NCBI GenBank assembly: GCA_963771665.1
Contig: CAVYUK010000004.1
Location: 63,971-127,970 of the forward strand
Length of the DNA: 64,000 bases
Direction of reading: 5' to 3'
Source: an uncultured Gammaproteobacteria bacterium
GTDB lineage: Bacteria > Pseudomonadota > Gammaproteobacteria > Steroidobacterales > Steroidobacteraceae
Shown here: positions 33,838 through 42,279 of the stretch, one piece after another
How the letters are laid out: the number at the start of each line of letters is the position of its first letter
How positions within the stretch are numbered: position 1 is the first letter of the stretch
Translations under genes and position numbers: made by a program
Notes under the pieces: model-generated
Databases searched by the model: none
Seen by the model: only the letters and a program-made list of their open reading frames with translations
What the model was told of the DNA's origin: nothing

Positions 33838-36800
33838 TTGACCACTGTAGTGCGCACATCCGCGAACAGACTCGAACGCATTGAAAGTGCGCAAGCGGAA
33901 CAACCGGAACTCCGATCTTGCCTGCATGAGCGCTTCGAACAGCAGGTTGAGCGCACGCCTGAAGCCTTAGCGCTGACCTGCGAAGGCGAGTCGCTGAGCT
34001 ACGCGCAGCTCAACCAACGGGCCAATCGTCTTGCCTATTACCTGCGTGATCGCGGCGCGGCCCCCGACCGGCTGATCGGCCTTCACGTCGAGCGTGGCAT
34101 GGATATGGTTGTGGGGATCATCGGCATCCTCAAGGCCGGCGCCGCCTACCTGCCGCTGGATCCCGTATACCCACGGGATCGGATCGCGTTCATGCTCGAG
34201 GACACGGGCGTGGGGCTGGTGGTCACTCAAGAGAGCCTTGTTGCGAACCTCGACGGTAACCCGGTGGAGCGGGTTCTGTTGGGCGAAACTCAATCGGAGT
34301 CAGACACCAATCCGACTGCAGTAACGACGGCCGATGGTCTGGCCTATGTGATCTATACCTCTGGGTCGACCGGTAAGCCCAAAGGCACCCTGGTCACTCA
34401 TCACAATGTCACTCGGCTGTTCGACGCCACTGAGCACTGGTATCACTTTAGCCAGCGCGACGTCTGGACGCTGTTTCATTCCTATGCATTTGATTTTTCG
34501 GTTTGGGAAATATGGGGAGCGCTGCTCTACGGAGGGCGCGTTGTCGTGGTGCCGCAGCGGATCAGTCGCTCTCCCGAGGATTTCAGGGAGTTGTTGGAGC
34601 ACGAGCGGGTTACGGTACTCAATCAGACCCCGTCGGCGTTCCGCCAATTGATGCAGGCGGAACTGGCCCAATCCAGCGGCAAATTATCGCTGCGCTACGT
34701 CATCTTCGGCGGCGAGGCGCTCGAATTACAAAGCCTGCGACCGTGGTTTGAGCGCTACGGTGACCAACAGCCGCTGCTCGTGAACATGTATGGCATTACC
34801 GAGACCACGGTACATGTCACTTTTAGACCGATCGGCCTGGCCGATTTGAATTCTGGCCAAGGCAGCGTCATCGGAGTGCCGATACCGGATCTGCAGCTCC
34901 ATATACTCGACCCGGCCGGCGAACTCTCGCCGGACGGAACCCCTGGCGAGATATACGTCGGGGGTGCCGGGGTGGCGCTCGGTTATCTGAATCGCGACGA
35001 ATTGACCGCGGAGCGCTTCATTTCCGATCCGTTCTCTCACGGAACCGGGGCGCGGCTTTACCGAACCGGTGACCTGGCGCGGCGCCTCGACAATGGTGAC
35101 ATCGAGTACCTTGGGCGTATCGATCGCCAGGTAAAGATTCGAGGCTTTCGCATCGAGTTGGGCGAGATCGAATCGGTCATCGCATCGCACTCGGCCATCA
35201 ACGAGGTCGCAGTCCTGGCGCGGGAGGACGTTCCTGGCGATCAGCGCCTGGTGGCCTACGTAGCGGCCACCGGTTCGCCGGGCGATCTCATCGAGCAGCT
35301 TCGTCACCGACTCCGTGCCGCGTTGCCGGAATACATGGTCCCTGCCCATTTTGTCAGCCTGGATAGGTTGCCGCTGACCGAAAATGGAAAGATTGATCGC
35401 CAGGCATTGCCGGTGCCTGACGATGCGTCTCCTGAGGCAGCCTACGTCGCGCCTCGTACGCCTACCGAGAGCGCCCTGGCCGTCATCTGGGCCGAAGTCC
35501 TCGGACTCAAACGTGTTGGTGTCGAGGACAACTTCTTCGAGCTGGGTGGTCACTCGCTGCTGGTAATGAGCGTGATCCAGCGCATGCGCCACGCAGGGTT
35601 TGATGCCGATGTAAGCAGCTTTTATCTTGCGTCCACGATCACGGCGTCAGCGGCTGCGGCGGCAGGTGCGGCAGCTGGCGGCAGTCGCGAGATCGAAGTG
35701 CCGGCTAACCTGATTCCGCCGGATTGTCAGGCCTTGACTCCTGACATGCTGCCCCTGGTTCAGTTGAGCACGGAGGAAATCGAATGCGTGGTGGCCGCCG
35801 TACCGGGCGGCGCAGCCAACATCCAGGACATCTATCCGCTGACGCCACTGCAGGAAGGGATGCTGTTCCATCATCGAATGGCCAGCCTCGGGGATACCTA
35901 CCTGGTGACGACTGTTTTCGGCTCCAGCAACCGCGAACTTCTCGACCGCTACCTGTGGGCGCTGCACCTGGTCATTGATCGTCACGACATTCTGCGCACC
36001 GTGTTTCTGTGGGAGGGCTTACCCGAGCCGGTTCAGGTGGTGTGCCGCCATGCGTCACTCATCGTTGAAACACTCAGCCTCGACCCGGCCGAAGGCGATA
36101 TCGCAAAACAGTTGGAACGGCGCTTTGATCCGCGCCATTACCGGCTTGATCTGGGGCACGCGCCGATCATCCGTGTGTTCATTGCCCAGGATGCACCGAA
36201 CGCGCGGTGGGTGATGCTGCGGATACACCATCACTTGTTGGAGGACCACACCACCGACGAATTGATGAGCGAGGAAATCCAGCAATGCCTGGACGGCCGG
36301 TCGGATCAATTGCCCGCGCCTTTGCCGTTCCGCAACTTCGTCGCCCGGACGAAGCTCGCAGCCCGTTCAGATGAGCAGCGGACATTTTTCCGCAACATGC
36401 TCAGCGACGTGGATGAGCCCACTTTGCCATTTGGCCTCACTGAATCACGGACCAATGCGTCGGAGATAAAAGAAGCGCGGGCTTTGGTGAATGTCGCCTT
36501 GGCCACCCGGGTACGAAATGCAGCCCGTAAGTGCGGGGCGAGCGCCGCGAGTCTCTTCCATCTCGCATGGGCGAAGGTCCTCTCACAGTGCTCCGGTCGG
36601 GACGATGTGGTGTTCGGTACCGTGCTGATCGGGCGCATGCACGCGGGACAGGGATCCGAGCGCGTGCTGGGGCCGTTCATCAATACTTTGCCGCTGCGCC
36701 TGCAGCTGGGCGAACTCAGCGTCGAGGATGGCATCCGCCAGACCCATAGCCGCCTGGCGCAGCTGCTTGGCCACGAGCATGCATCGCTTGCCGTGGCTCA

Positions 36801-42279: not shown

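Follow-up and report, generated by a model that had tools for sequence, protein, structure and literature searches.

The window examined here, a 64,000-nucleotide stretch of contig CAVYUK010000004.1 from an uncultured bacterium of the Steroidobacteraceae, contains a nonribosomal peptide synthetase (NRPS) gene and raises the question of what its two condensation (C) domains, C1 and C2, do to the residues delivered to them. A preliminary description of the window had proposed that both are non-canonical domains that could dehydrate Thr to dehydrobutyrine (Dhb) and Ser to dehydroalanine (Dha). C1 and C2 are canonical members of the dual epimerisation/condensation (E/C) clade, i.e. ordinary by family. 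Judged by three active-site positions, C2 fully and C1 half belongs to a subset of that clade that is linked to Dha and Dhb, and the prospect that at least C2 dehydrates appears to us evenly balanced.

Translation of the gene gives a single uninterrupted protein (Table 1), in which Pfam recognizes three AMP-binding, three PP-binding and two Condensation domains (E 9.5e-95) in the order A-T-C-A-T-C-A-T, where A and T denote adenylation and carrier domains. These were the only Pfam matches, with no starter C, epimerisation (E) or thioesterase (TE) domain among them. Specificity codes were read at the Stachelhaus positions via a hidden Markov model (HMM) alignment and hand-checked against motif anchors, and the assignment of the modules to Thr, Ser and Gly leans on the established Stachelhaus codes. 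As the codes upstream of C1 and C2 are those for Thr (DFWNIGMVH) and Ser (DVWHISLVD), each domain directly follows a β-hydroxy amino acid module, just as had been described; both upstream carrier domains, T1 and T2, read LGGHSL. The active-site strings were likewise found exactly as first noted, IHHHLLEDH at aa 796–804 (nt 36223–36249) in C1 and NHHLMDDQ at aa 1894–1901 (nt 39517–39540) in C2.

Membership of the dual E/C clade is apparent from motifs, domain order and scores alike. A second His motif near the N-terminus, HH[I/L]xxxxGD, is the hallmark of dual domains (PMC1894796). C2 matches it exactly, and C1 carries Arg in place of I/L, as do the C1 orthologues. The motif had been overlooked in the preliminary description, and it makes epimerisation to D-allo-Thr (D-aThr) and D-Ser the default prediction from family membership alone. 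The closest database relatives, at 50–55% identity, are C domains of lipopeptide synthetases from Pseudomonas syringae, cichorii, asplenii and gingeri together with many environmental NRPSs, nearly all with an HHxxxDH(T) core and LYHH[L/I]xxxxGD near the N-terminus. When the C domains of 79 loci taken from species-representative genomes were scored on the joint C1+C2 profile, the distribution was bimodal, with 138 domains at 400 bits or above and the others mostly below 150. C1 and C2 share the high-score band, above 450 bits, with the Pseudomonas lipopeptide dual domains, and all high scorers have the N-terminal His motif and a GGHSL-type upstream T domain. By these scores and identities, C1 and C2 group with known dual domains and not with LCL, DCL or starter domains; their position within the family was not resolved by neighbour-joining (137 domains). 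The DDN-type domains are polyphyletic in this tree, and tree placement was for this reason rejected as a guide to function. A specific relationship to SolG was also considered and discarded. The NCBIfam SolG model scores 510 and 483 bits on the two domains, and since it is the sole dual-type model in that library and ordinary His-type dual domains (SypA and others) score alike at 479–529 bits, the match denotes clade membership only. The best PDB matches of C1 and C2 are the DCL-type domains of McyB, PvdL and TycB at approximately 130 bits. No dual-type C domain is found among the solved structures and AmbE is distant, which excludes CmodAA membership and is silent on function.

C1 and C2 are 54% identical and form, with their orthologues, one clade supported by 98 of 100 bootstrap replicates in the same tree, which identifies them as paralogues. 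The earlier claim of paralogy is thereby upheld, though not the suggestion that the blocks quoted for it are special to the pair, as NLIPxxCxxITPDML, VPGGxxNIQDIYPLxPLQEGxLFHH and RHDILRT are conserved throughout the dual E/C family. For a wider comparison, a survey set was assembled from the 79 loci and 150 long NRPS proteins obtained by a representative-library search. The core motif and the specificity codes of the upstream and downstream A domains were recorded for each dual-type C domain, and 424 domains remained after sequences of more than 90% identity had been dropped. In approximately 331 of these His replaces the Gly of HHxxxDG. Thus, the two domains are non-canonical relative to LCL and DCL domains and not within the dual family, where HHxxxDH is the majority state, and the Gly-to-His exchange is the norm there. 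Of the pattern HHxxxDH...[E/D] that marks the majority (epimerising) type, C1 has the His and a Glu along with an extra acid at x3, the residue before the catalytic Asp; C2 has Gln and Asn instead of the His and the acid.

This acid is strongly associated with the nature of the donor module. Of 47 domains with Asp or Glu at x3 (HHxx[D/E]D), 43 follow Ser or Thr and 4 follow another residue, as compared to 68 and 230, respectively, of the 298 domains with any other residue at x3 (odds ratio 36, p = 5e-20). Shared lineage does not account for the imbalance: clustering at 65% identity divides the 43 acidic-x3 domains outside the window's own clade into 37 groups, of which 33 stand mostly after Ser/Thr. 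Within the 29 proteins that contain both types, the acidic domains follow Ser/Thr in 28 cases and other residues in 3, and the non-acidic domains in 7 and 35 (odds ratio 47, p = 1.5e-10). By neighbour-joining, the acidic-type domains are polyphyletic and cluster with non-acidic domains from the same organism (Streptomyces, Andreprevotia, Variovorax, Pseudomonas), which argues that the acidic motif tracks function and not descent. The acidic type looks either to have evolved repeatedly or to have been preserved through intragenic homogenisation. In a column comparison, only three positions, counted from the catalytic second His, discriminate the acidic from the His-type domains. Position +3 (x3) is D/E in the acidic type and hydrophobic, Gly or Ser in the majority type; +5 is N, A, V or Q, with N and A commonest, as opposed to H; and +9 is K, R or Q as opposed to E or D. 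An acid at +9 occurs in none of 44 acidic non-His domains and in 87% of the non-acidic His-type domains. Conversely, the C-lobe Glu equivalent to the proposed E367 of AlbB/MalA did not discriminate between the two types in the column search. A separate observation concerns three of the loci, in which C domains of an HHAILDGWS type were found after Thr or other modules (L055, ORF 1-12051, aa 1303–1712; also L075 and L044). Their upstream T domains read GGDSM or GGDSI and they score 92–97 bits on the C1+C2 profile; this type may represent a CmodAA or DCL-like solution for the same position.

C2 displays the full three-position signature, with D1899 at x3, Q1901 at +5 and N1905 at +9. Asp at x3, in the pattern DDQ...N, is shared by six of nine C2 orthologues (L003, P0187, P0004, L080/L081, L082 and that of the window). 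At +5, Gln is in the minority, yet it recurs in acidic domains that follow Ser/Thr (P0134, P0155, P0169). Given the complete signature and the loss of the epimerase-type His(+5)/acid(+9) pair, C2 is predicted to be Dha-forming, and the presence of the signature in most of its orthologues makes Dha the probable product. C1 is a hybrid that combines the acidic x3 (E802) with retained His(+5) (H804) and Glu(+9) (E808). E802 and the whole core pattern are invariant across the eight C1 orthologues examined (L001, L002, L003, L080, L081, L082, P0187 and P0001; 58–84% identity). This acid-His-acid class occurs solely after Thr, in three independent lineages; outside the C1 clade it is represented by one protein each from Lysobacter (P0160) and Dactylosporangium (P0266). 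In the latter, the module next to this domain is one for Ser and has an EDN-type domain, which mirrors the layout of the window NRPS. The invariance of E802 and the restriction of the class to Thr donors point to selection on contact with the Thr side chain. On this reading C1 would certainly engage this side chain and could yield either Dhb or D-allo-Thr. The third His of C1 (H797) is conserved in the C1 orthologues and appears sporadically in ordinary His-type and DDN-type domains, and is hence not diagnostic. In an acidobacterial homologue from a metagenome-assembled genome of Granulicella (L004, 442-1995), the C domain between the first module and the Ser module belongs to the C2 sub-clade (HHLQYDQAT) and not to C1; as a C2-type domain holds the first junction there, the two paralogues are not bound to fixed positions.

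A few acidic-type domains can be compared with known products. The 90%-identity cluster of one surveyed protein (P0122) includes a sequence named syringopeptin synthetase SypA, and its modules and core motifs read Thr-[HHLIDDA]-Pro-[LDH]-Val-[NDA]-Val-[LDH]-Ala. Syringopeptin SP22 is FA-Dhb-Pro-Val-Val-Ala... (FA, fatty acid; PMC3039948), and the acidic-type domain of P0122 stands directly after the Thr that becomes Dhb1. Similarly, a protein of P. kitaguniensis/P. marginalis (P0193) reads Cstart-Thr-[DDA]-Pro-Ser, in agreement with the tolaasin N-terminus Dhb-Pro-Ser. Published proposals point in the same direction. Solanimycin contains five consecutive Dha residues, and SolG is believed to handle Ser iteratively; the SolF, SolG and SolH-C1 condensation domains fall into the NaPDoS 'dual' clade, have HHxxDDx instead of HHxxxDG and were proposed as dehydratases (PMC10204066). 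For malpinin, the dual-type domain after Thr in module 6 of MalA was proposed to catalyse 'dual dehydration/condensation' giving Z-Dhb (PMC9365243); a Mortierella match from the initial search (P0007) reads HHIIEDQ. In the stenothricin and stendomycin systems, the C domains that follow the Dhb modules lie in the C/E clade, and 'special dehydrating C/E domains' have been suggested (PMC10880069). The survey strengthens and sharpens the idea of a dehydrating dual-type class, which is still a proposal short of an established family of enzymes.

A third motif state, HHxxNDA(T/S), was seen after Leu or Val in tolaasin- and syringopeptin-type synthetases (L027, L009, L023, L031, L073 and P0122). The source of L027, P. 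costantinii LMG 22119, is a tolaasin producer (PMC9948697). L027 itself reads Gln-[MDH]-Leu-[NDA]-Val-[LDH]|Thr, corresponding to Gln10-Leu11-Val12-Dhb13 of tolaasin. Residues 10–12 of tolaasin are reportedly D-Gln, L-Leu and D-Val, a stereochemistry attributed to Nutkins 1991. If so, the loss of His(+5) coincides with a lack of epimerisation in L027, and HHxxNDA(T/S) may be a marker of 'epimerisation-inactive' C/E domains. His(+5) domains also follow some L-residues, so this marker is insufficient alone.

From these observations we infer the following chemistry and residue roles. Before condensation, dual E/C domains abstract the Cα proton of the donor carried on T and return one from the opposite face. 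Where a β-hydroxyl is available, the same enolate could expel hydroxide (elimination via the conjugate base, E1cB), given help from an acid and a block on re-protonation. The covarying changes, in which a carboxylate is gained beside the catalytic Asp and would assist while the His/acid pair is lost, fit such a switch to elimination. In C2, X-Ser-S-T2 would be converted to X-Dha-S-T2 and then coupled to Gly, while in C1 the α-position of Thr would be activated with either Dhb or D-allo-Thr as outcome. The tripeptidyl-S-T3 thioester would then probably be released or transferred by the conserved adjacent α/β-hydrolase with a Cys nucleophile.

Several points weigh against dehydration. The survey association is a linkage to Ser/Thr and not to dehydration itself, with few sites calibrated on known products, and the A-domain assignments behind it were made by simple code patterns. 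The x3 residue of C2 is Ile in L001 and L002 and Tyr in L004, so that this clade may be able to do without the acid. Elsewhere, xDQ domains of the non-acidic kind come after modules other than Ser/Thr. As for C1, His(+5)/Glu(+9) is the state of epimerising members, and no member of the acid-His-acid class has a known product. Moreover, bootstrap support for the placement of the C1/C2 clade within the family is near 0 (neighbour-joining, 137 domains). In the literature surveyed, no dual-clade dehydrating C domain is biochemically characterised and the class stands as a proposal (PMC10880069, PMC10204066, PMC9365243); for solanimycin, SolK was offered as an alternative dehydratase. Finally, Thr is loaded on an initiation module with a free amine, where Dhb would be an enamine that gives 2-oxobutyryl upon hydrolysis. 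As this N-terminal enamine would tautomerise and hydrolyse, D-allo-Thr is favoured at position 1; a similar instability has been discussed for Ser in solanimycin (PMC10204066). Of the Dhb-Dha-Gly product first envisaged, Dha at C2 is probable by signature, while the free N-terminal Dhb is chemically unstable. The earlier idea of dehydrating domains survives in this restricted form, via the acidic residues E802 and D1899 and not for the reasons originally given.

The strongest competitor is an ordinary dual E/C line with no dehydration at all, giving D-aThr-(D/L)-Ser-Gly. C1 would convert L-Thr into D-allo-Thr, C2 would epimerise Ser or simply condense L-Ser, and the acidic x3 would merely help to bind the β-hydroxyl. 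Every defining sequence feature of such domains is present in both C1 and C2, and the His(+5)/Glu(+9) pair of C1 is the one seen in 87% of the His-type members. The instability of a free-amine Dhb and the three C2 orthologues that lack the acid agree with it, as does the fact that 68 surveyed Ser/Thr modules precede non-acidic domains. The NDA domain of L027 after Leu11, reportedly an L-residue, implies that non-His variants can be plain condensers. In Pseudomonas lipopeptides D-Ser and D-aThr formed by dual domains are common (PMC3039948). However, an acid that only binds the hydroxyl would be expected after all Ser/Thr modules, and it is present in only 39 of 105. The acidic domains also lack the epimerase-type pair (acid at +9 in 0 of 44), and SypA has the acidic type exactly where Dhb1 arises, as do, according to the literature, the solanimycin modules that form Dha. 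On balance we consider an ordinary epimerising line possible, though we would not bet on it.

Alternatively, both domains could be plain condensation catalysts with vestigial E/C ancestry, giving L-Thr-L-Ser-Gly. C/E domains without epimerisation activity are on record for lipopeptide synthetases of Pseudomonas (PMC9948697), and C2 has neither His(+5) nor the acid at +9. In contrast, C1 retains every conserved dual-type position, E802 is invariant in the orthologues examined and the acid-His-acid pattern is confined to Thr donors, which renders a purely vestigial line unlikely. That C1 and C2 are related to, and work like, CmodAA domains (AmbE-C2, AlbB-C2/C3, McyA) or NocB C5, a likeness drawn in the preliminary description from their position after Ser/Thr modules and from the three consecutive His that C1 shares with NocB C5 (PMC10880069), is highly improbable, as AmbE CmodAA scores 64 bits and McyA 76–89 against approximately 130 for DCL structures and more than 450 for dual-type relatives, CmodAA retains HHxxxDG and a GGDSx-type T domain (PMC10880069) where HHxxxD[H/Q] and GGHSL are found here, NocB C5 is a DCL-clade domain with an upstream E domain and the Gly that are missing here, and the third His is absent from C2 and most acidic-type domains and present in ordinary members. 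The GGHSL versus GGDSx distinction (PMC10880069) was also tried as a discriminator among dual-type domains and dropped, because every surveyed one follows a GGHSL-type T domain.

Table 1. Coordinates of the NRPS, its domains and motifs, and the adjacent hydrolase genes in the window
Feature	Position	Strand	Basis
NRPS gene, 2813 aa, A(Thr)-T-C1-A(Ser)-T-C2-A(Gly)-T	33838..42279	+	Open reading frame (ORF) list, translation, Pfam
A1 adenylation domain, code DFWNIGMVH (Thr)	33910..35472	+	HMM alignment and hand check
T1 carrier-domain core FFELGGHSLLVMS, GGHSL type	35533..35571	+	
C1 condensation domain, dual E/C clade, aa 605-1105	35650..37152	+	1030 bits to C1+C2 HMM; Pfam Condensation
C1 N-terminal second His motif LFHHRMASLGD (HH-R-xxxx-GD)	35863..35895	+	
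C1 core motif H797-H798-H799-L-L-E802-D803-H804-T-T-D-E808	36226..36261	+	
A2 adenylation domain, code DVWHISLVD (Ser)	37198..38772	+	
T2 carrier-domain core FFELGGHSLLAVT	38833..38871	+	
C2 condensation domain, dual E/C clade, aa 1702-2210, C1 paralogue	38941..40467	+	1052 bits to C1+C2 HMM
C2 N-terminal second His motif LFHHLLTSEGD, exact match to HH[I/L]xxxxGD	39154..39186	+	
C2 core motif H1895-H1896-L-M-D1899-D1900-Q1901-A-S-A-N1905	39520..39552	+	
A3 adenylation domain, code DILQLGMVW (Gly)	40513..42060	+	
T3 carrier-domain core FFEMGGHSLLALR; protein ends shortly after, no release domain	42124..42162	+	
abH1, α/β-hydrolase fold, VRAG in place of nucleophile elbow	31950..32912	+	Pfam, synteny, alignment
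abH2, α/β-hydrolase, conserved GLCSG (Cys nucleophile), Asp, His	32894..33748	+	Pfam, alignment

The release route that we infer involves the two α/β-hydrolase genes, abH1 and abH2, directly upstream of the NRPS. Their adjacency to an orthologous NRPS is conserved in L001 (9636-11233), L002 (6438-8146) and L082 (675-2284). By its residues, abH1 is probably non-catalytic, and abH2 is a candidate trans-acting release or transfer enzyme for the TE-less synthetase; together they may work in trans as a Cys-thioesterase or transacylase, one member being a pseudo-enzyme. A more distant NRPS homologue (L080, 10400-11614) has a fused C-terminal TE-like domain whose elbow, GLCVAG, likewise contains Cys. 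Its third A domain has a Val-like code (DAMWMGGTF) and not the Gly code, with the C1 and C2 motifs unchanged. The flanks of the window gene (30872-31789 (-) and 42320-47177) encode a TupA-like ATP-grasp protein, a FabH-like KAS III with its Cys/His/Asn triad intact, an MBOAT protein, a membrane protein without a Pfam match (45165-46166) and a GT11 glycosyltransferase. Upstream of the L002 gene (1921-4924), a Wzx-type flippase and a Bac_transf initiating sugar transferase are found. Neither L001 nor L002 has KAS III, MBOAT or GT11 in its flanks; these are therefore not counted as part of the conserved core, and attachment of the peptide to a polymer is for the same reason a lead only. An MBOAT protein beside a carrier-protein-bound acyl donor recalls the Dlt system.

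A further variant combines the dehydrating chemistry with this neighbourhood. C1 would dehydrate unacylated Thr to a 2-oxobutyryl starter via a 2-aminocrotonyl thioester, akin to threonine-deaminase chemistry within an NRPS, C2 would form Dha, and the Cys hydrolase would pass α-ketoacyl-Dha-Gly to a cell-surface acceptor. The MBOAT, GT11 and TupA-like genes of the window and the Wzx and sugar-transferase genes of L002 are candidate surface links for this scheme, which we regard as a long shot.

Apart from these genes, the GC content of the window at approximately 30000–54000, which holds the NRPS cluster, is 0.56–0.61 compared to 0.63–0.69 in the flanks, and the same stretch includes a truncated FGE-sulfatase-like ORF (47729-48235) and an IS481-family transposase (53033-54220). 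Together, these features suggest horizontal acquisition. An unrelated region at 13910-24728 encodes a ChlI/ComM-like ATPase, a TPR-CHAT protease-like protein and an OmpA-family protein, along with a two-partner-secretion exoprotein (TPS domain, 1354 aa) and an ShlB/FhaC-type transporter.

The origin of Dhb and Dha in the Pseudomonas 'peptin' and 'mycin' lipopeptides, solanimycin, the malpinins, stenothricin and stendomycin is unclear or only proposed, and of the dehydrating C domains the separate CmodAA clade alone has been characterised. The three-position rule (acidic x3, no His at +5, no acid at +9) predicts which Ser/Thr sites should yield dehydro residues and indicates the positions to target by mutation. 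It makes a long-standing question testable and is in this respect the more valuable by-product of the analysis. Applied to the present locus, it predicts a small, possibly electrophilic product derived from Thr-Ser-Gly. The TE-less synthetase behind it is accompanied by an unusual Cys-hydrolase pair, and in at least two genomes its neighbours include genes for the cell envelope or for polysaccharides. Bearing both signatures, C1 should be a good enzyme for probing how re-protonation (epimerisation) competes with elimination (dehydration).

In comparison with known systems, C1 and C2 stand closest to the dual E/C domains of the Pseudomonas lipopeptides arthrofactin, syringopeptin and tolaasin (Balibar 2005, Rausch 2007), with which they share 50–55% identity, a location directly after T with no E domain, HH[I/L]xxxxGD, the HHxxxD core, the GGHSL T domain and the N-terminal linker blocks. 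They differ from these in the acid before the catalytic Asp, in the Gln/Asn that C2 has for His(+5) and Glu/Asp(+9), and in that C1 acts on the aminoacyl thioester of an initiation module and not on a peptidyl or acylated donor. With the proposed dehydrating domains (SypA C2, SolG/SolH-C1, the 'C*' domain of MalA M6, stenothricin C6, stendomycin C8) they have in common the dual clade, the position after Ser/Thr and the acidic x3, and C2 further resembles them in having neither His(+5) nor the +9 acid. Conversely, C1 keeps His(+5)/Glu(+9), and C2 has the minority Gln(+5) and an acid that is not found in all orthologues. The CmodAA/DHC domains (AmbE-C2, PDB 7R9X; AlbB-C2/C3, LgnD-C2, AzeB-C2, McyA) are similarly placed downstream of a β-hydroxy amino acid module, and the proposed order of events, dehydration of the donor followed by condensation, would be the same. 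They belong to another clade, as reflected in the 64 bits of AmbE, and have HHxxxDG and a GGDSx T domain without the N-terminal HHxxxxGD. The module-5 C domain of NocB, which forms the nocardicin β-lactam, resembles C1 in the extra His before HH and in the upstream β-hydroxy amino acid, whereas it is a DCL-clade domain with HHHxxxDG that acts on a D-configured peptidyl-Ser donor; C1 has neither the Gly nor an upstream E domain, and C2 reads NHH.

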